A stretch of 64,000 bases of DNA from Dehalococcoidia bacterium (GTDB lineage: Bacteria; Chloroflexota; Dehalococcoidia; Lucifugimonadales; SAR202-VII-2): positions 193,311-257,310 of the forward strand of contig CBDDDS010000002.1 of NCBI GenBank assembly GCA_965226745.1, written 5' to 3'. The position numbers were made by a program, and so were the translations under genes. The notes beneath the pieces are model-generated. The model ran no database searches. It saw only the letters and a program-made list of their open reading frames with translations, and was not told the origin of the DNA. Of the stretch, positions 1 to 57,967 are shown in pieces. Each line of letters opens with the position of its first letter. Positions within the stretch are counted from its first letter, which is position 1.

Positions 1-213
1 CCTACCTGTAGCTGTGACCTAACTGTCGCCAAAAGCAACGCAAACAATCAAAAGCAGCGCAGACAATCAAACAGCGCATACCCCAAGCGAGACGTCCCAT
101 CTGGCCCTCCCCACCCCTGGCGAACGGGCGGGTCCATGCCGTCCCAGGGCCAATGGCTGAAGCCCTCCGGGCCCTCCTCGAGGCCGTGGTACAATGCCCG
201 CCGGGAGGGCTAC

Positions 214-2539: not shown

Positions 2540-3844
2540 TCAGTCGGATCCCTGCCGCGGCTCTGTCGCCGGGGATCCAGCGACGAGGGGCGCCCCGCCG
2601 CCCAGTGGGCAGGCGCCACAGGCCAGCCAGCGGCAGCCGTGCCGGTAGATGTGCATCATGCCCTGCTGCTCCCTGGCCGCGATACTCATGGAACCAGCAT
2701 CCGCGAGCGCCCTCGAGCGGAACTCCTTCGTCAGCTCGTTCTCTTCCCCTCTTGGCAGGATTGCATAGGAGTCCTGGGCGGCCTTGGCCAAGGAGCGGTC
2801 CTTGCGACGCAGCGCCAGGGAGTAGAAGAACGGCAGAATGACGTTGGCCGTCATGTCCAGTGCCCTGCCGCGGCCCACGAGCCGCCCGCCAGCGGCCCCC
2901 TCGACTGCAAGCGCCTCCAGCAACCCTCTACCGCTACCGGCCCTCACCAGCGCTTCCAGGCCGCTCACCAGCCCCGTTGGAAGCCACCGGTGCAGCAGCA
3001 ATGCCGCGCCCAGAAGCCGGCGCCGGGGATGATTGGCCGGCCTCAGGCCCCCCAGTCTCCAGTCGGACGCCCGCAGCACCGGAGGAACGCAGCCGCCGGC
3101 TGCTGCCGCCTCCGAAAGCCCGGAGGCGTCCATCAGCGCATCACTCAGCCACTGGGCTCTGGCCCTGCCGGGGAGGGCCAGAGCCCGCCGGCGAAGCCAG
3201 GAGTACGGAAGCATCAGGGCCAGCCTGCGGAAAGGCTCGCGGTTGGCGCTGTACCCCAGCGCCTCCATCAGCCCTCTGTACAGCACCTCCTCCTCCAACG
3301 CGTGGGCTATCCGCAGCCGGAACCTGCGCGCCTTCTCTCGAAAACGGGCGTCTCCGGCCCTCCTGAGCGCCTCCTCCACCCCCTCCCGCCCCAGCCGCAG
3401 CAATGCGTCCCCGCACGGATAGCCACCGCCTGCATCAGCACCGGACGCTACGGCGCCCCGGCCCTCCAGAGCCACGGTGGGCGCCATTATGCCAAGCTCC
3501 AACTGCGCGGCGGCGGCGCCCCGGAAGACCACGTGGAGCATCACGTTGTTGTAGCGGGGGTCCCGGTGGTGGCCGTGCTCCCGCCACCCCGACGGATGCC
3601 GGTGCACCTCCACGTCGCCCACAACCAGGCGGCCGCCGCTCGTCCTTGCCACTGCGTCCCGGAAATCCGGCCCCGGGCCGCGGCCCCGCCGACCCGGCGA
3701 CACGATCCGCAGGCGTTCTCCATCAGCCTCGACGGCGACACCCCGACGCACGGCGGACTCCCACATGTCCCAGAGGTCAGCCTCGGGGGGAGCGGCCAAG
3801 GCGTAGCGGAATGGCCGCTCCCTGACCAACCGCGTCGCCGCCAT
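2540..3844 (-). CDS. DUF2851-like protein
   Basis: Distal 435 codons of ORF 2540..4369. GPDFRDAVARTSGGRLVVGDVEVHRHPSGWREHGHHRDPRYNNVMLHVV resembles the conserved DUF2851 core. I chose ATG 3844 (MAATRLV...) because earlier starts overlap the XRE gene. Confidence 0.6.
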   Translation of the reverse strand: MAATRLVRERPFRYALAAPPEADLWDMWESAVRRGVAVEADGERLRIVSPGRRGRGPGPDFRDAVARTSGGRLVVGDVEVHRHPSGWREHGHHRDPRYNNVMLHVVFRGAAAAQLELGIMAPTVALEGRGAVASGADAGGGYPCGDALLRLGREGVEEALRRAGDARFREKARRFRLRIAHALEEEVLYRGLMEALGYSANREPFRRLALMLPYSWLRRRALALPGRARAQWLSDALMDASGLSEAAAAGGCVPPVLRASDWRLGGLRPANHPRRRLLGAALLLHRWLPTGLVSGLEALVRAGSGRGLLEALAVEGAAGGRLVGRGRALDMTANVILPFFYSLALRRKDRSLAKAAQDSYAILPRGEENELTKEFRSRALADAGSMSIAAREQQGMMHIYRHGCRWLACGACPLGGGAPLVAGSPATEPRQGSD

Positions 3845-4004
3845 TGCCGCCTCCCGGCCAATCCGCGGCGCCCCTGTCCCCACCGGCGTAGCGGAAGCCA
3901 GCCTCCCCGACGATGCGGGATAGGATCGACCGGTTGACGCCCCAATCGCGTGGCGGCGTGCGTCCTCACTGACCACGGTCGGCAACTTCACCAGCGCCTC
4001 CAAG

Positions 4005-4271
4005 TCAATCCGCGTCCCCGATGTGTGTTTCCCCATAGCGGAAGCCAGCCTCCTCAGCGATGCGGGACAGCATCGACCGGCTGATGCCGCGGGGGCGGTA
4101 GGCGCCTCGCTCCCACTCGCTGATGGTCTGCTGCCGGGTTCCCAGGCGGTCCGCCAACTCCGCCTGGGACAGGCGTAAATGACGCCGCAGGGCTTGCACC
4201 CTCTCCGGGTCCCAGGCGGCGGACGCCGGGCGTCTGTGCTGCGGATAGTCAACCATGAAGCCAGAGTACAC
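4005..4271 (-). CDS. XRE-family helix-turn-helix transcriptional regulator
   Basis: LRLSQAELADRLGTRQQTISEWERG is a classic HTH_XRE signature. An alternative start is ATG 4256. Confidence 0.8.
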   Translation of the reverse strand: MYSGFMVDYPQHRRPASAAWDPERVQALRRHLRLSQAELADRLGTRQQTISEWERGAYRPRGISRSMLSRIAEEAGFRYGETHIGDAD

Positions 4272-4389
4272 GAAACCGTGTAGCCAGACAAGAAACGGCG
4301 CTCTTGGAAGCAGCTTCCACCGGCCCCCTCAGAACGCGCAATGCGGGTGAAGACCGTGTAGAATCGCACTGATAAACCGAGGAGGCTAC

Positions 4390-5343
4390 ATGGAGACCAG
4401 AACGTTCGGAGGGCTTTGGGACGTCAGCGCGCTGACCCTGGGCGGCGGCGGCATCGGCCAGGTGTGGGGCGCGACGACGCGGGAGGAGGCCGTGGCCACG
4501 ACCCGAGAGGCGGTCGAAGCTGGGATCACGCTGTTGGATGTGGCGCCCCTCTATGGCCAGGGAGAAGCGGAGGTCGTGATTGGCGAGGCCTTCGGGGGCA
4601 GGCTGCCCCCAGGAGTTCGCGTGAGCACCAAGTGCCGGCTCGACAACCGCCCCGCCGCCGAGGTCGCCGCCACCTTGGAGGCCAGCCTGCGGGAGAGTCT
4701 GCGGAGAATGCGTCTCGAGCGCGTCGACGTCTTCTTCCTCCACAGCCAGGTCATCCAGGACGACGTCGAAAACCCGCACCAGAGCACGCCATTGAGTCTG
4801 CTTCGGGAAGCGGCCGCGCCGGCGCTCGCGATGATGCGGGAACAAGGTTGGATCGGCGCATGGGGCATGTCGGCCATCGGCGTCCCATCAGCGTTGCTCC
4901 AGGTCCTGGAGGACGGCCGGGCCCCGCAGGCAATCCAGGCCATCGCCAACTGCCTGGATTCACCCGGCGCTCTCAGACGCTACGACGAGCCGGACCGCCC
5001 CCGGGACATCATCGAGGCGGCGGTGCGGCGGGACGTCGCGGTCATGGGCATCAGAGCGGTGCAGGCCGGCGCCCTCACCGACGCGCTGGACAGGCCTCTC
5101 CCCGACGACCATCCGGAGATGGTCGATTTCCGCCGCGCCGCGCCTTTCCGGGCCATTGCCCAGGAGATCGGGGAAGCGCCCGCCGCCCTGGCGCACCGGT
5201 ACTCCCTTACGATGAAGGGCGTCGACACCGTGGTGCTGGGCGTCAAGAACCGGCGGGAGCTTCGGGAGTGCGTCGAAGCGGCGGAACGAGGTCCCCTAGA
5301 CCCAGAGCTGATGGCCCGCATCGACCAGGCGGTGGGCCGATAG
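4390..5343 (+). CDS. aldo/keto reductase
   Basis: 317-aa ORF. The LGGGGIGQVWG...EAVEAGITLLDVAPLYGQGEAEVVIGEA pattern is typical of the AKR family. Confidence 0.85.
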   Translation: METRTFGGLWDVSALTLGGGGIGQVWGATTREEAVATTREAVEAGITLLDVAPLYGQGEAEVVIGEAFGGRLPPGVRVSTKCRLDNRPAAEVAATLEASLRESLRRMRLERVDVFFLHSQVIQDDVENPHQSTPLSLLREAAAPALAMMREQGWIGAWGMSAIGVPSALLQVLEDGRAPQAIQAIANCLDSPGALRRYDEPDRPRDIIEAAVRRDVAVMGIRAVQAGALTDALDRPLPDDHPEMVDFRRAAPFRAIAQEIGEAPAALAHRYSLTMKGVDTVVLGVKNRRELRECVEAAERGPLDPELMARIDQAVGR

Positions 5344-5422
5344 CGTTGGCCGCGCGCCGTTGAAGAAGACCTTTGCAGAACCGGCGATGCCTCGCATCAA
5401 CCCGGTGGTGTACGACGCAATC

Positions 5423-5445
5423 CCTGCCCCCGACTACGGGGCAGG
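5423..5445. repeat. REP-like GC hairpin (family H3)
   Basis: CCTGCCCC-cgactac-GGGGCAGG lies between two convergent genes. It has the same consensus as the copies at 12588, 13034, 35554, 35658, 38783 and 57889. Confidence 0.6.
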
Positions 5446-5534
5446 TTGGGATAGAGGTCGCTGGGTAGTGCGGGAAACTCGGCGCAGGAGTTCTGCAATG
5501 GTTTCTAACGGGACGGGGTTCCGCCCGCGTCCGC

Positions 5535-11709: not shown

Positions 11710-12080
11710 CTTTTCAGTTCCGTTGCGGGGGTTGGAGTCTGGGGGCGTTGCCGCCAGCCCTGTGGGGCCGCTCACCCAGGCCATTGTATCACGGGCGGCG
11801 GCAACGCCTTCACGGGCCGTTCCACTAACCCTGGCCCGGGGGGTTGCAGCGGACTGGAATCCACCGACACAGCGGGGCCATTGTTCCGACGCCCCGAGCA
11901 CCTCGGTGCGCCGCGCCCTGCGTGGGCAGCGCCGCCGGCGGCCTCCCAAGGGCAACAGCGACGGGAGCGAGAGCGGAAGTCCACAACACCTCGACGCGAT
12001 AACAGGTAAGACTTCTGGATGGTGAGCGAGGTCTTGTTACGCCAATCAGCCGGATTTCGGTGGGGGTAGGCACGGAGCCA

Positions 12081-12169
12081 GTACAAAGGCGTAATAGGGC
12101 GTAACGAGCCGTAATGAAGCTGTAAAGGATCTGTAATGGATCTGTAATGGAGCCGTAACGAACCGTAAT
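12081..12169. repeat. phased tandem array, 9 cores (GTAC, then GTAAT/C/A)
   Basis: Core starts are 12081, 12091, 12101, 12111, 12122, 12133, 12144, 12155 and 12165. The intervals are 10,10,10,11,11,11,11,10 bp. Confidence 0.85.
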
Positions 12170-12365
12170 GGAGCGGGATGGCTCCAAGGAGCCTGCCTCA
12201 CAACGGCAGTCGCTCCGGTCCCAGCCTTCCTCGGAGGGTTGTGGGCCTGGGGATGTTCCCCAAGCCCCTGCCACAGGGGGATTCTCTGTGGTTAGCCCCC
12301 AGTACATACGTTATGCGGCAGGCTCCAAGGAAGAGAAGCGGGCCGGGGGCCCACTTCCTGGCGAT

Positions 12366-12394
12366 ACCATAGCACAATAGTTCGGATTTTGCAA
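12366..12394 (-). promoter_or_regulatory. promoter-like motif at the distal end of copy A
   Basis: On the minus strand: TTGCAA, a 17-nt spacer, then tgtgcTATGGT (an extended -10 style TGn). The same arrangement is present in copy B. Confidence 0.35.
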
Positions 12395-12456
12395 TGGGGG
12401 GGGGCGCCTCCTAACCTGCCCTCAAGTACCGAGAGAGAGAGGGGCTTATGGTCGCG

Positions 12457-12555
12457 GGCACCGTTATCCCACCTAGCCCCCTCCAACGTTTGGGGTTACA
12501 GGGGGACACGCTGTTCCCCCGGCGGGGGCTGCGCCCCCTGCACCCTGCTTGGGGG
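12457..12555 (+). repeat. double-hairpin module H2
   Basis: GGGGGACAcgcTGTTCCCCC followed by GGGGGCtgcGCCCCC. It is homologous to 38850..38950 (inverted) and 15819..15925. Confidence 0.75.
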
Positions 12556-12587
12556 ACGGAGGAGGCGCGTCCGAACCCCCTTCCTAG

Positions 12588-12642
12588 CCTTCCTCCGAAT
12601 ACGGGGGCAAGGACAGACATCCTCTCCCCCGACTATAGGGTA
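12588..12642. repeat. two REP-like H3 hairpin copies
   Basis: CCTTCCTCCGaataCGGGGGCAAGG plus a second, degenerate copy CTCTCCCCCGACTATAGGG. Confidence 0.55.
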
Positions 12643-15818: not shown

Positions 15819-16020
15819 TTTGTTTTGGCCTGCGCCGCTATCCCGCCCGCTCCGCCCTCCGACGGTTTCCAAAGCAGGGGCACTCGCTGTACCCGCGGCG
15901 GCGGCTGCGCCCCCTGCACCCCGCTCGGCGAGACGAAAGCCCCATCCTTGACGGTGCAGGCGTATTGGTCGTTGTATGGTCCTCCAATGACAGCCCAATT
16001 CGGTGTATTAGCGTGAACAG
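15819..16020 (+). repeat. H2 module plus end module E4
   Basis: TTTGTTTTGGCCTGCGCCGCTATCCCGCCC...GCTGCGCCCCCTGCAC, then ...CAATTCGGTGTATTAGCGTGAACAG. The E4 part is the inverted homologue of 35435..35525. Confidence 0.75.
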
Positions 16021-20203: not shown

Positions 20204-20280
20204 TGGTCGGGGTGAGAGGATTTGAACCTCCGACCCCCTGCACCCCATGCAGGTGCGCTCCCGGGCTGCGCTACACCCCG
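20204..20280 (-). tRNA. tRNA-Pro (anticodon GGG)
   Basis: The minus strand reads CGGGGTG-TA-GCGC-AGCCCGGGA-GCGC-A-CCTGC-ATGGGGT-GCAGG-GGGTC-GGAGG-TTCAAAT-CCTCT-CACCCCG-A-CCA. This is a full cloverleaf with an encoded CCA. Confidence 0.9.
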
Positions 20281-20529
20281 ACGCTCATAGAGATTAGCAC
20301 ACGCCCGAAGGGCCTTCAACCGCGGCGCGTCCCTCAGCAAGCATGGCCTAACGACGATATCAGGTGCCTAGAAAGCTCACGCGGCCCACTATCGACAGCA
20401 ACCCGGGCACAGGTATCGAGACCCAGGCGTCATCGTTGACCCTGGCGGTTCTATGCTCCTATAATGGGCCGTCCCACACTAGGGCCCGGGCTTCGTCGTC
20501 TCCAGGCCCCCAACAAGGAGGTGGTCGCC

Positions 20530-35434: not shown

Positions 35435-35938
35435 CTGTTCACGCTAATACACCGAATTGCGTTGTCAATGGAGGACTGTACAACGACAAATGCGCCTCCA
35501 CTGTCCATTATGGAGCTTTCGTCCCGCCGCGCGGGGTACAGGGGCGACTCTATCCCTTCCTCCGAGTACGGGGGCAGGTTAGGAAGCGTCTGGACGCGCC
35601 AAGGAGAGAAAGCGACGCCCCTTTCGTTCCTCAAGCGGGGGCCGGAGGTGTCTCTGTCCCTGCCCCCGAGTACGGGGGCAGGCTAGGAAGGGGGTTTCTC
35701 CCCCTGTTCTGGAAAACGTCGGAGGGCGGAGCGGGCGGGATAGCGGCGCAGGCCAAGACAGACCCTCCGCTGAAGGAGGGCGCAGGCGACAACAAGACCA
35801 TCCGTTCAGAGAGGGCCCAGGGCCACCCAAGGTTCCCGCCCGTCTATAGCGCCAACCCGTTTTCATCAACCTTATCTGGCCTGACAAAGCCTCTGTCCTA
35901 CCGGGCCAAGGCCGGTAATCCAACCCCCTAGTGTGAAC
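35435..35938. repeat. 504-bp composite repeat (E4-H2 remnant-H3-H3-H2 part-M6-E5) filling a convergent intergenic gap
   Basis: The left end is CTAGGGCCTGTTCACGCT. The right end, reverse-complemented, is CTAGGGCATGTTCACACT (16/18 identical). The internal modules are homologous to 12457..12642, 14859..15008, 15819..16020 and 38783..39012. Confidence 0.8.
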
Positions 35939-36937: not shown

Positions 36938-38608
36938 TCAACGCCCGGAGTACAGGCGCTGCTCCTCCTGATGAATGACGTCGTCCTCCAACTTGGTAAA
37001 CAGGGGCTCGGGACTCTGCATGGGCTGGCCGGCCGGGACCTCGCGATACGCCCATCCCCCCTCCGAGGCCCCGTCGGAGAAGCCCACCATCTGGCGAATT
37101 CTATCTCCGCTGAACGGCAAGAACGGCCAAGCCAGCGTGCTGAGCGCGCCGATGACGTTGACGGCTACCCACAAACTTGTCGCGGCCCGCGGCCTGTCCA
37201 CCTTGATCGCCTTCCAGGGCGCCGCGCCGTCCAGATAGCGGTTGGCCTCTTGGCACAGGACCATGATGAGCCGCAAGGCGTCGCGGAAATGGCAGGCAGA
37301 CAGCTCCCCGCCCACGTCGGCAAAGGCGGCTCGCGCCTTGTCCAGGAGGTCGGAGTCCCTCTGTTCCAGGCTGCCCGGCTCGGGGACCCGCCCGTCGAAG
37401 TTGCGGTGGGTGAAGGAGAGAACCCGGTGCACCAGGTTTCCAAACGTGGCCACGAGTTCATCGTTGTTGCGCCGCTGGAACTCCCGCCAGGAAAAGGACG
37501 AGTCGCTGGTTTCCGGCATGTGGGCCGAGAGGTAGTAGCGCAGGGGGTCGGGGTCGAAGCGCTCCAGGTAATCGGGAACCCAGACGGCCCAGTTGCGGCT
37601 TGTGGAGAGCTGGCTGCCCTCGATGGTGAGGAACTCGTTGGCGGGGACGTCGTAGGGCAGGTTGAGATGCTCATAGCCCATCAACATGGCCGGCCAGATG
37701 ATGGTGTGGAACGGTATGTTGTCCTTGCCGATGAAGTAGTGGGGCCGGCACGAAGGGTCCTTCCAAAAGGCCTCCCAGGCATCCGGGTCGCCTCGAAGTT
37801 TTGCCCATTCCTTCGACGCCGACAGATACCCTATAACCGCCTCGAACCACACGTAGACCCGCTTGGAGTCCTGCCCGTCCACGGGGAGCGGCACGCCCCA
37901 CGAAATGTCGCGCGATATGGGCCGGTCCTTCAACTCCCCCTCGAGGAAGCTGACCGTGAAGTTGCGCACGTTGGGCCGCCACCGGTCCTGCGGTTTGACC
38001 CAATTGAGCAACGCCTCTCTGAAGGCGCTGAGCTTGAAGAAGAAGTGCTCCGACTCTCGTATCTCCGGCGAGGCGCCGCAGAGCCTGCATCGGAGGTCCT
38101 GCATTTCCTGCGGCTCCAGGGTGCGGCCGCAGTTGTCGCACTGATCGCCTCGCGCCTTGTCGAAGGCGCAGTGGGGGCATGTTCCCTCAACGTAGCGGTC
38201 GGGAAGGAAGCGCCTATCGACATGGCAATAGGGCAGCGGCATGACCGCCGTATAGATGAACCCCTTTTCATCCAGCGTGCGCCAGATGTCGTGGACGACT
38301 TCTCGGTGATTGGTTGTGGAGGTAGACGTGAAGAGGTCCCACTGGATGCCCAGTCCCTCCCACGATTGCATGAAGCTATCGTGGTAACGGGCCAGCAGCT
38401 CTTCCGGGGCGACGCCCTCTTGCTCCGCCCGCAGGGTGATGGGCGTACCGTGGGCGTCCGAGCCGGACACCATGAGCACGTCGTTTCCTTTGAGACGATG
38501 ATAGCGGGCGAAGATGTCGGCGGGAAGATAGCAGCCGGCGATGTGCCCCAAGTGGAGGTGGCCGTTGGCGTAGGGCCAAGCCACTGCTACGAGTATGCGT
38601 TCAGCCAT
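36938..38608 (-). CDS. metG: methionine--tRNA ligase
   Basis: The start is ATG 38608 (MAERILVAVAWPYANGHLHLGH, the HIGH motif). Zinc knuckles CPHC...CDNC and KMSTS-like SQLSTS are also present. The track ORF extends to 38752. Confidence 0.9.
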   Translation of the reverse strand: MAERILVAVAWPYANGHLHLGHIAGCYLPADIFARYHRLKGNDVLMVSGSDAHGTPITLRAEQEGVAPEELLARYHDSFMQSWEGLGIQWDLFTSTSTTNHREVVHDIWRTLDEKGFIYTAVMPLPYCHVDRRFLPDRYVEGTCPHCAFDKARGDQCDNCGRTLEPQEMQDLRCRLCGASPEIRESEHFFFKLSAFREALLNWVKPQDRWRPNVRNFTVSFLEGELKDRPISRDISWGVPLPVDGQDSKRVYVWFEAVIGYLSASKEWAKLRGDPDAWEAFWKDPSCRPHYFIGKDNIPFHTIIWPAMLMGYEHLNLPYDVPANEFLTIEGSQLSTSRNWAVWVPDYLERFDPDPLRYYLSAHMPETSDSSFSWREFQRRNNDELVATFGNLVHRVLSFTHRNFDGRVPEPGSLEQRDSDLLDKARAAFADVGGELSACHFRDALRLIMVLCQEANRYLDGAAPWKAIKVDRPRAATSLWVAVNVIGALSTLAWPFLPFSGDRIRQMVGFSDGASEGGWAYREVPAGQPMQSPEPLFTKLEDDVIHQEEQRLYSGR

Positions 38609-38644
38609 AGAGGGGAGGCGGCGCCAGGTTAAGAGGGATGCCTC

Positions 38645-38655
38645 ATTGTAGCACA
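38645..38655 (-). promoter_or_regulatory. extended -10 promoter candidate for metG
   Basis: The minus strand reads TGTGCTACAAT about 37 nt upstream of the metG ATG. Confidence 0.35.
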
Positions 38656-38782
38656 GGGCCGGTGAAAGCATCAGGCCGCTTATGCTCTCGGGACTCGAGA
38701 CTCTTGCATTACCTGTATCACGCGCAAATGGCTCCATGCTTACCGACGACACCTCGCGTCACCTGGCGGTGTGCGACTCTGT

Positions 38783-38810
38783 CCCTGCCCCCGACTACAG
38801 GGCAGCCTGG
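38783..38810. repeat. REP-like H3 hairpin copy
   Basis: CCCTGCCCCCGACTACAGGGCAGCCTGG. Confidence 0.55.
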
Positions 38811-38849
38811 GAAGCGCCCAGACGCGCCAACGCAAGCTCGCCCCCGTCT

Positions 38850-38950
38850 CCCAAGCGGTGTGCAGGGGGCGCAGCCCCCGCCGGGGGTACAGCGTGTACC
38901 CCTGTACCCAGAAACGTCGGAGGGTGGGCAGGTGGGACAACGGCGCAGGC
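38850..38950 (-). repeat. double-hairpin module H2 (inverted copy)
   Basis: GGGGGCgcaGCCCCC and GGGGTACAgcgTGTACCCC. Colinear with the reverse complement of 12457..12555. Confidence 0.75.
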
Positions 38951-39012
38951 CAAAGCAGACCCTCCGCCGAAGGAGGGCGCAAGCCAAAACAAATCCATCC
39001 GCCCAGGTTATG
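38951..39012 (-). repeat. partial linker module M6
   Basis: CAGACCCTCCgccgaaGGAGGGCGCAAGCC... is homologous to 35757..35800. Confidence 0.6.
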
Positions 39013-39023
39013 CCCCACCCCCC

Positions 39024-39052
39024 TTGCAAAATACGAACTATTGTGCTACGGT
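39024..39052 (+). promoter_or_regulatory. promoter-like motif at the distal end of copy B
   Basis: TTGCAA, a 17-nt spacer, then tgtgcTACGGT. It is orthologous to 12366..12394 and points through the element toward the ABC operon. Confidence 0.35.
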
Positions 39053-39250
39053 ACCCCCATGAAGTGGGCCACCGGCCCGCTTCTCTTTCTCGGAGCCTGC
39101 CGCATATGTTCGGACAGGGGGATTCTCTGTGGACTCCCCCTGTGGCAGGGGCGCTGAGGGAACAACCCAAGGGGCAAGACCCTCCGAGGAAGGCTGGGAC
39201 CGGAGCGAATGCCGTTGTAAAGCACAGGCTCTTTGGAGCCATCCCGCTCC

Positions 39251-39349
39251 GTAACGACTCGTAACGACTCGTAACAACTAGGTAACGGTTCGTAACGGCT
39301 CCGTAACGACTCGTAACAGCTTTGTAACGGCCTGTAACGCCTTTGTAAT
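39251..39349. repeat. phased tandem array, 10 cores (GTAAC x9, GTAAT x1 on the + strand)
   Basis: Core starts are 39251, 39261, 39271, 39282, 39292, 39303, 39313, 39324, 39334 and 39345. The intervals are 10,10,11,10,11,10,11,10,11 bp. Confidence 0.85.
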
Positions 39350-39515
39350 GGCTCCGTGCCTGCAAACCCCGAAATCTGGCTGACAAGCGTTACAAAGCCT
39401 CGCTCACCGTCCGGAAGTCTTACCTGTTGTCACATGGAGGTGCTATAGATTACCGCTCCCGTTCCCGCCGCTTTAGCCCTTGGTGCGCCCACCGGCTCTC
39501 GCCTGCTCTGCGCTC

Positions 39516-39526
39516 TGTGCTAGACT
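39516..39526 (+). promoter_or_regulatory. extended -10 promoter candidate for the ABC operon
   Basis: TGTGCTAGACT lies 53 nt upstream of ATG 39579. Confidence 0.3.
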
Positions 39527-39578
39527 CGCTCATGGCCTCAGAGCCATCGGCTGCGCCGGCCGGAGACAGCGGCCAGCG

Positions 39579-40508
39579 ATGGAGTCCAGCGCATTGAGCC
39601 TCCAGGGCCCCATAAACCAGGTCTCAGCGCGCGACCTCTGGAAGTCGTTTGACGAGCGTCCAGTGGTCCAGGGCGTATCCTTCGACGTCCCGCAGGGGCG
39701 GATTCTGGGCCTCGTGGGACCAAACGGGGCCGGCAAGACCACCACCATCCGCATGCTGCTGGACATCCTGCGCCCGGACCGCGGAGAGGTGACGGTCTTC
39801 GGCCAGCCCATCACTGAGGCCACCAAGGAGCAGATAGGCTACCTGCCGGAGGAGCGCGGCCTCTACCAAGGCCAACGGGTCGCCGACACCCTGACGTATC
39901 TTGGGGAACTTAAGGGCCTCTCCCGGCGCGCCGCAGCCGCGAACGCCCAGGCCCTCCTCGAGCGGCTGGGGATGGCGCCCCATGGAAGGAAGAAGGTCAA
40001 GGAACTCAGCCGAGGAATGGCCCAACTCATTCAGGTAGCGGCGATGCTGGTTCACCAACCGGCGCTGGTGGTGCTGGACGAGCCCTTCTCGGCGCTGGAC
40101 CCGGTGAACGTGCGTCTGCTAAAGGAAATCATCGCCGAGGCCCGCGCTAGGGGGGCAGCCCTTGTCCTCTCCACCCACCAGATGAACCAGGTGGAGGAGC
40201 TCTGCGACCGCGTGGTGATGATTGACCAAGGCCGGGTGGTGCTCTCCGGAGACCTGGCGGACATCAAGCAACGTTACCGGAGCAACAACGTGATGGTGGC
40301 CTGCAGCCCCTGGCCCGAAGACCTTCAGGGCGTCAGCCGCGTCCGCCGGGAGGGCGACTCCCGCGTCATGGCCCTCGATCCCGGCATCACTCCAGAGGAA
40401 GTCCTTCGGCAGCTCCTGGACCGCGGCGCCTCCATCGACCGGTTTGAGGTTGGGACGCCAAGCATGGAGGAGATCTTCGTGACGGTGGTGCGAGGGCGCG
40501 TTGCGTAA
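39579..40508 (+). CDS. ABC transporter ATP-binding protein
   Basis: Start ATG 39579 (MESSALS...). Walker A GPNGAGKTT and Walker B LVVLDEPFSALD are present. The track ORF starts at 39480. Confidence 0.85.
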   Translation: MESSALSLQGPINQVSARDLWKSFDERPVVQGVSFDVPQGRILGLVGPNGAGKTTTIRMLLDILRPDRGEVTVFGQPITEATKEQIGYLPEERGLYQGQRVADTLTYLGELKGLSRRAAAANAQALLERLGMAPHGRKKVKELSRGMAQLIQVAAMLVHQPALVVLDEPFSALDPVNVRLLKEIIAEARARGAALVLSTHQMNQVEELCDRVVMIDQGRVVLSGDLADIKQRYRSNNVMVACSPWPEDLQGVSRVRREGDSRVMALDPGITPEEVLRQLLDRGASIDRFEVGTPSMEEIFVTVVRGRVA

Positions 40509-41709
40509 GACGCTTGTGGTCCTGAGGCGAGAGTTCAGCGTGACCGTTCAGCGGACCAGCTTCCGCGTGTTGACGCTGGGGATCCCGGCGCTTGCGCTAC
40601 TTGCTGTGGCCGCGCTCCTGATATTCCAGGCAGTGCGCGACCCGTCCTCCCACGACCAAACCGCAAACGTGGGCTATATCGACCGCTCGGGACTGTTGAC
40701 GGCATTCCAAGACCAGGGAGAAGTGATTTTTCTGCCTTTCCAAGAGGAGGATGCAGGCATCCAGTCTTTGCTAGTGGGTGAGATCTCGGCCCTCTACGTC
40801 ATTCCCGAAGCGTACTTGGAGACGGGCCAGGTCGTCAGCGTCGCACCGGAGCGGGCTGGACTGGACTTTGGCCGTGGAGACTACGGTCCGCTGGAGCGGT
40901 TCTTGCTGGACAACATCCTGGAGGGACAGGTCTCCGAAGAACGGCGGCAGCGGGTGCTCAGGCCCATTATTGCCACCATGATTGAGGTGGACGAGCAGGG
41001 TCTTCCGGTTGAAGACACCCGGGATTACGGCCACCTTCCCTTCTTCATAGCCTTTGCCTTGCTCATCGTAGTATCCATACTGGGGGCTTCCGGGTATCTC
41101 CTCCAGGGGCTGAACGAGGAGAAAGAGAACAGGATCATGGAAGTGCTGCTGTCGTCGGTGACGCCGGAGAAGCTCATGCTGGGGAAGCTGGCGGGGTTGG
41201 CGCAGATGGGCGTCTGGGCAGGGGCAGGGGTGGCCGTTTTCTTTGCTCTTCGGATCGGGCCGGTGGACCTGCCCGGCCTGAGCCTTCCCCCGGTGCCCCT
41301 CATACTGGTGGCGCTGCTGTACTTCGTCCTCAGCTATGCTTTCATCGGAGCGTTGATGGCGGGGCTGGGCGCTGTCACCACTTCTCAGCGGGAAGCCGGA
41401 CAGATCACCTTCGTTTTCGTCCTGCCCATCGTGGCGCCGATGTGGTTCTTCTCTCTCCTGCTGGAAAACCCCAACGGGATCGCAGGGCAAATCCTCTCGC
41501 TCATCCCCTTCACGGCGCCGCTGACCGGCCTCATCCGGCTGTCTGTGAACGCCATGAGCCCCGTTGACATAGCTGCCAGCCTCGGCGTACTGGCAATTGC
41601 GGTTGGCTTGGCCGTCCTGATGGCTACCCGCCTCTTCCGCGCCTATCTGTTGATGTACGGACAGAGACCCAAGCTCAAGCAGATCGCGCGCACGCTCGCT
41701 TTCGGGTAG
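40501..41709 (+). CDS. ABC-2 family transporter permease
   Basis: 402-aa ORF with one N-terminal TM, a large loop and a C-terminal multi-TM block. The TTG start overlaps the ATPase stop. Confidence 0.8.
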   Translation: MRKTLVVLRREFSVTVQRTSFRVLTLGIPALALLAVAALLIFQAVRDPSSHDQTANVGYIDRSGLLTAFQDQGEVIFLPFQEEDAGIQSLLVGEISALYVIPEAYLETGQVVSVAPERAGLDFGRGDYGPLERFLLDNILEGQVSEERRQRVLRPIIATMIEVDEQGLPVEDTRDYGHLPFFIAFALLIVVSILGASGYLLQGLNEEKENRIMEVLLSSVTPEKLMLGKLAGLAQMGVWAGAGVAVFFALRIGPVDLPGLSLPPVPLILVALLYFVLSYAFIGALMAGLGAVTTSQREAGQITFVFVLPIVAPMWFFSLLLENPNGIAGQILSLIPFTAPLTGLIRLSVNAMSPVDIAASLGVLAIAVGLAVLMATRLFRAYLLMYGQRPKLKQIARTLAFG

Positions 41710-56190: not shown

Positions 56191-56343
56191 ATTCCTACCT
56201 CCCGTGGAGCGAAGCCCCACCCTTCCGGTTAAGCAAATTCGTTTAGACAGTCATCGGGTCAGCGATAACCGTTTGATTGTTTGTTGGCGTTGTGTAGCTA
56301 TTTGATTGTTTGTCGACGCACGAAAGCCGTTAAACCCGGGGAC

Positions 56344-57799: not shown

Positions 57800-57967
57800 C
57801 GCTAGTTATCGTCCCCAGGGAGGTTGTGCGCGACCACCATCTTAACCGTTCCTCGTACCCGATAGGAAGGAGGGGTCCCCCTTCCTATCCTTCCCCCGTA
57901 ACCGGGGGAAGGGACGGGAGATGCTCCCGCCTCGCGCCTGCAACTGTACGATCCCTGGGAAGTACAG
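57800..57967. repeat. cluster of four hairpins plus repeat fragments in the atpB-atpE spacer
   Basis: Hairpins at 57862..57888, 57889..57912 (H3 family, CCTTCCCCCG-taac-CGGGGGAAGG), 57915..57929 and 57944..57967. TCGTCCCCAGGGAGGTTGTGCGCG at ~57809 matches 17825..17848. Confidence 0.6.

Follow-up and report, generated by a model that had tools for sequence, protein, structure and literature searches.

Two similar non-coding stretches in the window (the 64,000-nt stretch of a Dehalococcoidia contig analysed here), named copy A and copy B, belong to a family that is dispersed, in at least 44 copies, over the genome of one uncultured Dehalococcoidia lineage, and are not simply the two paralogous elements of the original prediction. 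Their common 370-nt core, the M1 module, is best read, with a probability of roughly 0.55, as a new family of bacterial interspersed repeats comparable to BIME, BOX and Correia elements, which is probably transcribed and carries an iteron-like array.

The similarity between copies A and B was evident both in a MAFFT alignment (81% mean column identity) and in blastn, which aligned positions 11934-12562 with 39496-38841 at 74% identity over 665 nt. The similarity first noticed is thus real, but its length of ~460 nt was an underestimate: homology totals ~700 nt (11934-12638 versus 39496-38770), passing the ends originally given by ~220 nt, up to ~12638 and ~38770. The landmarks then listed (a solitary GTWAC, an array of 9-10 units, the bracket and conserved blocks, and a GC hairpin) are all present in both copies. 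The 28-nt block CGCTCCGGTCCCAGCCTTCCTCGGAGGG is the same in copies A and B, and both this block and the AT-richer block had 2 matches, versus 0.00 expected by chance. The features of the two copies are listed in Table 1. Module U of copy A was found by blastn only in copy B and in loci L018, L022, L025 and L035. The inverted repeat formed by the solitary unit and the array of copy A spans 11 nt with 91% complementarity, and the first of the two hairpins that close this array (GGAGC-GGGATG-GCTCC) is found exactly reverse-complemented in four members of the family. The inverted hairpin loop of copy B was seen by aligning the window with loci L001-L003, and also occurs in L008, L009 and L027.

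Table 1. Features of repeat copies A and B, with positions in the window.
Feature	Position	Strand	Remarks
AACAGGTAAGACTTC	12001-12015 (copy A), 39414-39428 (copy B)		Within module U
GGAGCGGGATGGCTCC	12170-12185 (copy A), 39235-39250 (copy B)		
Copy A, alternative 5' module U, including AACAGGTAAGACTTC	11934..12033	+	Replaces the TTTGATTGTWTG motif of most members
Copy A, core module M1 (370 nt)	12034..12401	+	nhmmer model positions 2-373, E = 6e-118; 41-copy alignment
Copy A, solitary inverted repeat unit TTGTTACGC (GTTAC)	12034..12042	+	Complementary to array units, e.g. GGCGTAACGAG
Copy A, tandem array of 9 type-A units (GTAAY)	12081..12169	+	10- or 11-bp spacing; TRF periods 11 and 22
Copy A, two small overlapping array-closing hairpins	12170..12193	+	GGAGC-GGGATG-GCTCC and GGCTC-CAAG-GAGCC
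Copy A, block CGCTCCGGTCCCAGCCTTCCTCGGAGGG	12211..12238	+	Most conserved of the family
Copy A, GC hairpin GAAGCGGGCC-GGG-GGCCCACTTC	12335..12357	+	Copy B counterpart at 39061-39083
Copy A, predicted sigma-70-type promoter	12366..12394	-	Leftward through M1; -35 TTGCAA 12394-12389, 17-nt spacer ending TGC, -10 TATGGT 12371-12366
Copy A, M2 module	12404..12638	+	nhmmer E = 3e-66; hairpins 12494-12543, terminal H-type hairpin 12595-12616
Copy B, module U	39396..39496	-	
Copy B, core module M1	39016..39395	-	nhmmer E = 8e-113
Copy B, solitary unit TTGTAACGC (GTAAC)	39387-39395	-	
Copy B, array of 10 type-T units (RTTAC)	39350 down to 39256	-	
Copy B, conserved block	39180-39207	-	
Copy B, hairpin	39112..39150	-	Loop inverted relative to copy A and to orthologous copies of other strains
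Copy B, predicted promoter	39024..39052	+	Rightward through M1 to the ABC operon; -35 TTGCAA 39024-39029, TG 39044-39045, -10 TACGGT 39047-39052
Copy B, M2 module	38770..38964	-	Between M1 and the metG promoter (TGTGCTACAAT, 38655-38645)

The extent of the family was assessed in OZ253584.1, a 3.09-Mb Dehalococcoidia MAG, from which 35 tiles of 8 kb (280 kb, ~9% of the genome) were read. At least 43 near-full copies of M1 were found there, and nhmmer searches with the M1 model gave 52 hits, 45 of them near-full. A 24-mer of the conserved block had 36 exact matches among 185,579 species genomes, all of them in OZ253584.1 and distributed along its whole chromosome, which agrees with the earlier view that the pair is not a one-off duplication of junk. 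A single copy of this modular repeat is 0.4-0.8 kb long. M1 copies were also present in several near-identical assemblies. A sister species (83-85% amino-acid identity) had no M1 copy in the ~57 kb examined, where the sites corresponding to A and B are empty. No M1 match was obtained by blastn at distant sensitivity in plasmid or phage collections, and a core 22-mer gave nothing in viral contigs. As far as these collections show, the family appears to be restricted to one narrow Dehalococcoidia lineage.

Read in the orientation of the original prediction, a typical copy begins with a short 5' piece, which is TTTGATTGTWTG in most copies and module U in those of the window. One inverted repeat unit follows, then a linker of 44-45 nt in two unrelated versions, so that in most copies the solitary unit lies 44-45 nt upstream of the array. 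The array consists of about 5-12 units with a CGTWAC core at 10 or 11 bp, with GTCGY in a few cases, and is followed by an almost invariant block of ~100 nt, with ~98% column conservation over 36 copies. Beyond this block lie GC hairpins, a promoter pointing back into the element, and a variable number of M2 and H hairpin modules. M2 gave ~90 nhmmer hits in the loci read, often in tandem. The H hairpin (CCCCCGAGTACGGGGG) and the M2 hairpins are short GC-rich palindromic units, and the intergenic clusters contain several modules in variable order and copy number, both of which are BIME-like traits; the variable-number array between a conserved 5' piece and a conserved block is BOX-like, with a unit of 10-11 bp. 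The modules that flank M1 are themselves repeats (H, M2 and a TTTGATTG motif), masking any target-site duplication, and a search of two copies and their flanks found internal inverted pairs only, with no terminal inverted repeats joining the two ends.

Several observations indicate mosaicism. The family contains alternative versions of the linker and of the 5' piece, two of each, and the array type switches at least eight times on a tree of the 3' part. A single tract, spanning both the array and the solitary unit, distinguishes the window from OZ253584.1 at site A. The OZ253584.1 copy at this site is 88.8% identical to copy B of the window, whereas copies A and B of the window share only 74%. 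Gene conversion between sites A and B is demonstrated. The number of M2 modules varies by strain at site A and at the polA-ino1 site, the latter having an extra stretch of ~330 nt with two M2 hits, flanked by direct copies of the H half-site GTACTCGRGGGCAGG. IS insertions into the repeats involve an rve-type IS at locus L243 and IS5-family ISs, which adjoin some copies and interrupt H hairpins at their GTAC loop, accompanied by short duplications; the targets are the H loop and the G-run. Spread and homogenisation of the family take place at the DNA level, with modules recombining, copies converting each other and module number differing between strains. The near-invariant 100-nt block and the promoter, conserved over 41 copies, look like the products of purifying selection. 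Unless gene conversion by itself maintains the likeness, such conservation would be better explained by a function, as RNA or as DNA, than by purely selfish DNA.

The array is the most regular part of M1. Its units are tandem direct repeats at helical-turn spacing, as in iterons: successive units are separated by 10 bp in 104 cases and by 11 bp in 167, with a mean of 10.6, which makes up 271 of the 272 intervals in the 9-12 bp range. The core is kept while the spacers vary, which is not the pattern of recent slippage. Three core types were distinguished, GTAAY (type A), RTTAC (type T) and GTCGY; types A and T are never mixed in one array and are complementary to each other over CCGTWACGG. Among the 21 copies with the first linker, 20 have a solitary unit complementary to the array; among the 11 with the other linker, five lack this complementarity. 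Complementarity as a selected pairing was rejected: given these counts, and with the solitary unit and the array changed together in one conversion tract at site A, physical linkage suffices. A neutral model accounts for the unmixed arrays and for the complementarity only through this linkage. Inversion of the array between bracketing repeats was rejected as the source of types A and T, given that the spacers keep their orientation and the core alone differs. A polarity of GTAAY relative to replication was also rejected (G-rich strand in 19 of 35 copies). Candidate homologous GTAAC arrays in more than 120 metagenome contigs and 73 viral contigs proved to be unrelated 10-11-bp arrays (iterons and satellites) holding the heptamer by chance; in phage contigs, such unrelated arrays with a GTAAC core lie inside or beside replication genes.

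The original prediction offered a protein-coated DNA site as one possible identity of the element, and for the array alone this seems reasonable because all but one of the 272 intervals in the 9-12 bp range measure 10 or 11 bp. The array would serve, by a weaker argument, as a row of sites on one DNA helix face for a putative sequence-specific protein, as iterons do. The three core types would require one tolerant protein or several. A more speculative proposal, which we regard as improbable, is that the more than 40 transcribed M1 units, with 5-12 motifs each and three apparent specificities (GTAAY, its mirror RTTAC and GTCGY), constitute a genome-wide titration system. They would act either as a DNA decoy for iteron-binding initiators of invading phages or plasmids, or, as RNA or as DNA, as a sponge or scaffold that engages a host protein; the inverted solitary unit and the A/T complementarity would then belong to the mechanism.

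There is strong sequence evidence for a promoter inside M1. A conserved putative promoter of the extended -10 type, TTGCAA-N14-TGTGCTATAGT, lies on the strand opposite to that read in the original prediction, and its conservation suggests that the opposite strand is the one likely transcribed. Of 41 copies, 37 have TTGCAA as their -35 hexamer; the 17-nt spacer is constant (41/41), as are -12T and -7T (41/41 each), while TG and -11A are each found in 40 of 41. Variation in the 41-copy alignment is limited to the spacer and to positions -9 and -8, the pattern expected of a promoter. The motif TGTGCTAnnnT occurs five times in the window, versus 0.43 expected, and its three occurrences outside M1 are located directly upstream of a tRNA gene (20291), metG (38645) and the ABC ATPase gene (39516), all on the correct strand. 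A candidate forward-strand promoter at CACAAT was rejected, as its final positions are unconserved. Each copy would be transcribed from its own host-type extended -10 promoter, giving a predicted transcript of ~0.35-0.45 kb that runs on the opposite strand through the conserved block and the array to whatever lies beyond. The GC hairpin of copy A, read on this strand, would form the extreme 5' end of the transcript. With transcription from every copy, M1 would therefore scatter promoters, together with antisense and read-through transcripts, along the chromosome while serving no particular gene.

The genomic context bears on the proposal that M1 is a cis-regulatory 5' leader, riboswitch-like or protein-bound, for the EVE gene at copy A and the ABC exporter at copy B. 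The flanking polarity was described correctly (the EVE gene on the minus strand to the left of copy A, and the ABC ATPase gene on the plus strand to the right of copy B), the inferred promoter fires at the neighbouring gene in both window copies, and ABC-2 exporter genes are found in both neighbourhoods. However, neighbour genes of 45 copies show all four orientation combinations. On the side faced by the promoter, the gene is co-directional in 18 cases and convergent in 23, with unrelated products, and M1 neighbours in general are unrelated housekeeping and metabolic genes, which contradicts a constant gene set. The polarity shared by the window copies is therefore a coincidence and, with every intergenic context occupied, M1 is not a gene-specific leader. 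Moreover, the EVE, ABC and metG genes have their own promoter-like TGnTAnnnT element nearer to the start codon. In keeping with the first impression that the element resembles no riboswitch or large ncRNA class, Rfam gave no match to it in searches of the whole window and both loci: the only Rfam 15 hit in the window at gathering score was a tRNA elsewhere, and the best sub-threshold hits in the two loci, at an E-value threshold, were scattered and different between copies. A leader function is accordingly very improbable. Even less credence is given to a degenerate coding sequence or a recently duplicated segment of meaningless DNA, although long ORFs (160, 208 and 222 aa in the window) traverse the element on both strands and gene callers annotate such frames as hypothetical proteins of 160-200 aa, 24 of them in a public collection. 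The 222-aa ORF at 38718-39386 exists and translates the array, as had been noted, but frames and lengths differ from copy to copy, and the called products have no Pfam domain. The ORFs depend on array type, because TAA stops come and go with GTAAC versus GTTAC. The earlier judgement that no ORF is believable and that the element is conserved and non-coding is supported by these unconserved frames, and at least 44 copies that share the conserved promoter and array architecture are more than a single duplication.

Two further readings carry more weight. It is possible, albeit unlikely, that the M1 copies constitute a gene family encoding a functional ncRNA of ~0.4 kb. This RNA would have a 5' domain made of a hairpin and a long-range helix to the invariant block, would display 5-12 GUWAC motifs, and would either serve an RNA-binding protein as sponge or scaffold or pair with complementary arrays of other copies. 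The promoter conserved in 41 of 41 copies agrees with this, as does a shared 5' domain predicted in both window copies despite their sequence differences (z-scores -4.8 and -3.2) and also obtained from RNAalifold with 97.4% of cells paired. Frequent C/U polymorphisms preserve G-U pairs on the strand of the predicted transcript (columns 40-150, CG 22 and UG 19; columns 43-147, CG 21 and UG 13), the type-A and type-T units could pair with each other over CCGTWACGG, and ACAAUCAAA, on the 3' side of the predicted RNA, recurs sense-oriented in the atpH-atpA spacer. Nevertheless, the forward strand folds about equally well (-45.6 versus -47.5 kcal/mol for the alignment; z-scores -3.5 and -3.25) and has its own G-U pairs. 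Only four of 39 pairs changed on both sides, and the covariation term is ~0 on either strand, the copies being too similar. Both strands fold better than shuffles, and the choice of an RNA strand by structure was rejected, since alignment folds, single-sequence z-scores and pair counts are alike for the two. The "conserved structured element" of the original prediction thus stands as conserved, while a structured RNA is not supported. In addition, most copies have an unrelated sequence in place of an inner hairpin, the 10/11-bp period makes no evident sense in an RNA, and no terminator with a U tract was found. At least 40 copies also far exceeds sponge-RNA families, which to our knowledge have copy numbers far below forty. 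Quite unlikely as well is that M1, alone or together with M2 and H, represents a MITE-like non-autonomous transposon mobilised in trans by a transposase from another locus of the genome, with the array as a set of subterminal binding sites for this enzyme. Its numerous copies dispersed in intergenic DNA, the empty sites A and B of the sister species, and the extra ~330 nt at polA-ino1, bounded by direct H half-sites, would be expected of such an element. There is also a modest orientation bias relative to replication as judged by GC skew (30:13 copies, p = 0.014; 23:11 loci, p = 0.06), and IS elements occur in the same repeat clusters. On the other hand, terminal inverted repeats were not detected, and M1 itself showed no presence/absence polymorphism among the strains compared. 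Alignments of M1 ends with those of the IS5-family IS of the same genome scored like shuffled sequence, in keeping with the initial impression that the element does not look like IS ends, and both the IS5-family and the rve-type IS sit inside repeats without sharing ends with them. An origin of M1 as a MITE derived from the neighbouring IS5-family IS was rejected in the ~9% of the genome read, as end-to-end alignments remained at shuffle level.

The repeat family accounts for on the order of 1% of a 3-Mb genome, which is notable for Dehalococcoidia, whose genomes are generally regarded as compact. The family places at least 40 seemingly good promoters, randomly oriented, beside genes, is a hotspot for IS insertion, and has loci that convert one another; in this way it contributes visibly to regulatory noise and rearrangement in an uncultured lineage. 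The repeats have already been mis-annotated as proteins, and can pass for leaders or ncRNAs of neighbouring genes. The array, with one site per helical turn and three unmixed core types, offers a clean testable platform, and its putative partner, if found, would be new.

Among the closest known systems are the BIMEs of enterobacteria, which are built from REP/PU palindromes and, according to a review (PMC3184786) and general knowledge, are intergenic, multi-copy mosaics of modules and targets of ISs. The M1 family shares with them a strictly intergenic location, multiple copies, a few modules in variable order and number, GC-rich palindromic units and a role as IS-insertion targets. It differs from BIMEs in its core, which is 370 nt long, non-palindromic and equipped with a predicted promoter and a 10/11-bp array, and has no sequence similarity to them. 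Among the multi-copy proteins of the 35 tiles read, none stood out as a RAYT (IS200/605-like) transposase, the enzyme associated with REP/BIME repeats. The BOX elements of Streptococcus pneumoniae have the structure boxA-boxB(n)-boxC, with a boxB of 45 bp, are predicted to fold, and lie beside unrelated genes. Likened by description, M1 also has a tandem middle module of variable number between conserved end modules, predicted folding and unrelated neighbours; unlike boxB, its unit is 10-11 bp with a conserved core of 5-6 nt, and M1 has its own promoter and a host of a different phylum.

Correia elements (NEMIS/CREE) of Neisseria are MITEs of ~100-150 bp with terminal inverted repeats, TA duplications and an IHF site. 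Like them, M1 is a dispersed non-coding repeat that carries promoter elements to many loci, with read-through and antisense transcripts (predicted in the case of M1), but terminal inverted repeats, TA duplications and an IHF site were not found in M1, whose flanks are themselves repeats. Iterons of plasmid and phage origins and ParR-type centromeres, such as parC of plasmid R1 with its ten 11-bp repeats, bind Rep and ParR proteins. M1 has no adjacent initiator or partition gene, an AT-rich unwinding region and a DnaA box were not seen in it, and its arrays number at least 44 per chromosome, with three core types, in contrast to the single locus per replicon of iterons. The array of M1 nonetheless resembles iterons and ParR centromeres in its direct repeats with a conserved core, variable spacers and helical-turn spacing, and in the extra inverted copy nearby.

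The best-supported reading of copies A and B, the two look-alike non-coding elements of the window, is that they are members of a new mosaic family of interspersed repeats, which is restricted to a narrow Dehalococcoidia lineage and is spread and homogenised at the DNA level. Every landmark listed in the original prediction was found in its place in both copies, and the match of ~460 nt is real, but it extends ~220 nt beyond the reported end. The alignment of copy A to the reverse complement of copy B has a mean column identity of 81%, and blastn gave 74% identity over 665 nt. A 28-nt block has two exact occurrences in the window and the AT-richer block exactly two, each against 0.00 expected.

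The idea of just two paralogous elements did not hold. A 24-mer of the conserved block, used as query in a scan of 185,579 species with one genome per species, gave 36 matches, every one in the related 3.09-Mb Dehalococcoidia MAG OZ253584.1, where they are distributed around the entire chromosome. A nhmmer profile made from copy A produced 52 hits in the window and 35 fetched tiles, 45 of which span at least 250 of the 374 model positions. The window is 92-97% identical to OZ253584.1 and 99.95% identical to ERZ28763718 ctg125183 (3.33 Mb). The 370-nt core repeat, M1, was present in all five fetched contigs of other assemblies (E = 1e-101 to 1e-125), and spurious ORFs within it, used as queries, retrieved 24 'proteins' from a public collection. 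In the nearest other lineage (MetRS and the aldo-keto reductase 83-85% identical at the amino-acid level) the sites of copies A and B are both empty, and neither M1 nor M2, a hairpin module, was found in ~57 kb. Plasmids and phages gave no match to M1, nor did viral contigs.

In that lineage, a sister species (L004; 85% MetRS identity), metG lies ~80 nt after an Abhydrolase_2 gene, and the ABC-2 exporter operon with its M1/M2 is entirely absent; operon and repeats were either gained together by the window lineage or lost in the sister species. L002, one of the near-identical assemblies, carries a strain-specific insert relative to L001, with ParA/MipZ-like (AAA_31, CbiA) genes, upstream of the common region.

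The anatomy of M1 was read from a 41-copy alignment and a junction listing, in the orientation originally used for the two copies. M1 copies are mosaic in build. Most start at the 5' end with TTTGATTGTWTG, occasionally doubled, which in both window copies and a few others is replaced by the 100-nt piece U. The 5' piece is followed by one repeat unit in inverted orientation (the solitary unit), a linker of 44-45 nt found in two unrelated versions of equal length, and an array, in which conserved cores alternate with variable spacers rich in purines and whose 3' end is closed by two overlapping small hairpins. Then come a ~98% conserved block, GC hairpins, TAGCACAAT..TTTTGCAA and a G-run. M2 modules (~190 nt each, roughly 90 hits) and H hairpins (CCCCCGAGTACGGGGG) are located 3' of M1, and their number at a given site varies from strain to strain. 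Fragments of M2 and H also stand alone in the window, so the hairpin modules outnumber M1 and are more widely dispersed.

Several hairpins exist in two forms, one being the loop inversion of the other. The loop of the hairpin after CCTGCCACAGGGGGA is inverted in copy B, L008, L009 and L027, and the 16-nt GGAGCGGGATGGCTCC (alignment columns 205-218) is exactly reverse-complemented in L017, in two copies at L019 and in L035; such inversions are recurrent. Direct-repeat pairs of TTTGATTGTWTG, 18-29 nt apart, were also found at two window places unrelated to M1. The pair in the ATP synthase spacer reads CAAACAAUCAAA in the mRNA sense. In L007-L041 most M1 copies likewise have the motif on their 5' side; it may be an A/C-rich leader element, or else a site for a protein or for processing.

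A 1.2-kb IS5-family IS (DDE_Tnp_1 and DUF772; ends GAGACCTTTGCRTAA) was inserted, with a short duplication, in the loop (GTAC or CTAC) of H hairpins. The repeat clusters are IS targets. Another IS, with an rve-type transposase, has doubled TGACCTCAAAATTNNGGTTACCGAAG at its ends.

Coordinates of the repeats, associated motifs, insertion sequences and look-alike arrays
Feature	Locus	Position	Strand	Context
Copy A	window	11934-12638	+	EVE gene (-) and glutaredoxin gene (+)
Copy B	window	39496-38770	-	ABC-2 exporter operon (+) and metG (-)
Hairpin after CCTGCCACAGGGGGA	window	39112-39150		
M2/H fragments without M1	window	15820-15949; 35547-35769; 57865-57920; about 5380-5451		
TTTGATTGTWTG pair	window	30-71	-	left edge of window
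TTTGATTGTWTG pair	window	56272-56312	+	spacer between ATP synthase alpha gene and its upstream ORF
TGTGCTAnnnT	window	20291-20301	-	just upstream of tRNA gene (20207-20280)
TGTGCTAnnnT	window	38645-38655	-	just upstream of metG
TGTGCTAnnnT	window	39516-39526	+	just upstream of ABC ATPase
Exporter operon with M1/M2	window	38600-41709		
metG region, sister species	L004	9205-9998		
Strain-specific insert	L002	1142-2683		
IS5-family IS	L008	5736-6952		
IS5-family IS	L013	about 3740-4930	-	
IS5-family IS	L017	about 3600-4900	-	
IS with rve-type transposase	L243	about 3760-5070		G-run between M2 and promoter end of M1
Phage GTAAC-core array	L173	9361-9500		
Phage GTAAC-core array	L198	12297-12380		
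Phage GTAAC-core array	L237	1883-1990		
GAGCAAAATTTAAAATTCAATTAGTGATGGGCAAAATCGATATTTTCC element	L059, L060, L070, L073, L075, L077 and others			many short contigs, samples Ga0056126 and Ga0209458

Mapped on a tree built from the 3' part, array type switches at least 8 times, indicating that M1 copies are recombinants. At the orthologous site A, a type-A (GTAAY) array with a solitary GTTAC is found in the window, and a type-T (RTTAC) array with a solitary GTAAC in OZ253584.1 and L043. The difference between the window and OZ253584.1 is one single tract with near-identical flanks, and the OZ253584.1 copy shares 88.8% identity with window copy B, compared with 74% between copies A and B. This is gene conversion, between loci separated by 27 kb. 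The solitary unit is complementary to the array in 20/21 copies with the first linker and in 6/11 with the other, where it is always GTTAC; since both can change jointly in one conversion tract, this complementarity needs no selection. M1 is oriented in agreement with the sign of local GC skew (repeats masked) in 30/43 copies (p = 0.014) and, by locus, in 23/34 (p = 0.06), while the GTAAY strand showed no correspondence with GC skew (19/35).

The AT-richer block, read from the opposite strand, is TTGCAA-N14-TGC-TATAGT. The -35 hexamer TTGCAA is present in 37/41 copies, the TG and -11A in 40/41 each, and the 17-nt spacer, -12T and -7T in all 41. Only the spacer and -9/-8 are variable: none of the ten positions conserved below 90% is among the eleven critical ones (-35 hexamer, TG, -12, -11 and -7), for which our own hypergeometric estimate gives a chance of about 0.03. 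There are five TGTGCTAnnnT sites in the window (0.43 expected), two of these being in the M1 copies and the other three all lying on the correct strand for their gene; the motif looks like an extended -10 promoter of the source organism. The conservation across the 41 copies and the placement of this motif suggest a genuine extended -10 promoter of host type within M1. M1 is very probably transcribed from this promoter of its own; transcription would cross the GC hairpin, then the conserved block and the array. With a score of 8/12, the promoter escapes a simple consensus scan. CACAAT, the mirrored forward-strand candidate, was discarded, its key positions being lost in many copies.

Both copies had been proposed to face a flanking gene with the same polarity. 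Neighbours were found in all four orientation combinations, with unrelated products, which excludes M1 as a gene leader. The elements are non-coding as predicted: the coding reading was rejected, and the 222-aa ORF exists as a mere translation of the array. The proposal of a conserved structured element stands for the conservation of the block, but a structured RNA was not demonstrated, since both strands fold similarly. In RNAalifold the promoter strand reached -47.5 kcal/mol and the other strand -45.6, the covariation terms being close to zero, and single-sequence z-scores were -4.8 and -3.2 versus -3.5 and -3.25; only 4/39 pairs changed on both sides. Frequent C/U polymorphisms preserve G-U pairs in the promoter-strand model, which does not decide the strand because the other model has G-U pairs of its own. 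An Rfam search gave no M1 match, in line with the expected absence of a recognised ncRNA class. M1 as a MITE of the nearby IS was rejected, as terminal inverted repeats were looked for in M1 and not found, and the IS5-family IS ends resemble those of M1 no better than shuffles do, as anticipated for an element unlike any IS end.

Core-to-core spacing in the arrays is 10 bp (x104) or 11 bp (x167), with a mean of 10.6. The cores are GTAAY in 20 copies, RTTAC in 17 and GTCGY in 4, and no single array mixes A and T units. RTTAC mirrors GTAAY exactly, degenerate end included; array inversion as the origin of the two types was ruled out because the spacers keep their orientation. Type-A and type-T units are complementary to each other over CCGTWACGG, so paired copies might fold into long, imperfect hairpins or favour rearrangements. 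M1 pairs about 600-690 nt apart occur in L007, L010 and L033, and in 3/4 tandem M1-M2-M1-M2 pairs the upstream array is type A and the downstream one type T.

A search for three CCGTAAC units at 10-11-bp spacing returned >120 metagenome contigs and 73 viral contigs, which on inspection were rejected as homologues of M1, these unrelated arrays being analogues. Among them are phage arrays with GTAAC cores, a 10-11-bp period and inverted copies, positioned directly after a primase-helicase gene, in an ORF upstream of DnaB and in an ORF with a DnaT-like domain; they probably serve several unrelated phage groups as origin iterons. Other matching arrays are plasmid-like iteron sets and one eukaryote-like satellite. 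A multi-copy element of another kind (about 46% GC), which starts ...GAGCAAAATTTAAAATTCAATTAGTGATGGGCAAAATCGATATTTTCC and continues with a variable GTAACGNTCC array, has the appearance of a satellite or transposon from some other organism, possibly a eukaryote. The analogues indicate that the same geometry, often with inverted copies close by, is what DNA-binding initiators use. Because of this initiator-like geometry and the 10.6-bp period, a putative role in binding at the DNA level is favoured for the M1 array, for which the three core types are a difficulty. In kind, the M1 family is nearest to BIMEs (review PMC3184786), BOX and Correia elements.
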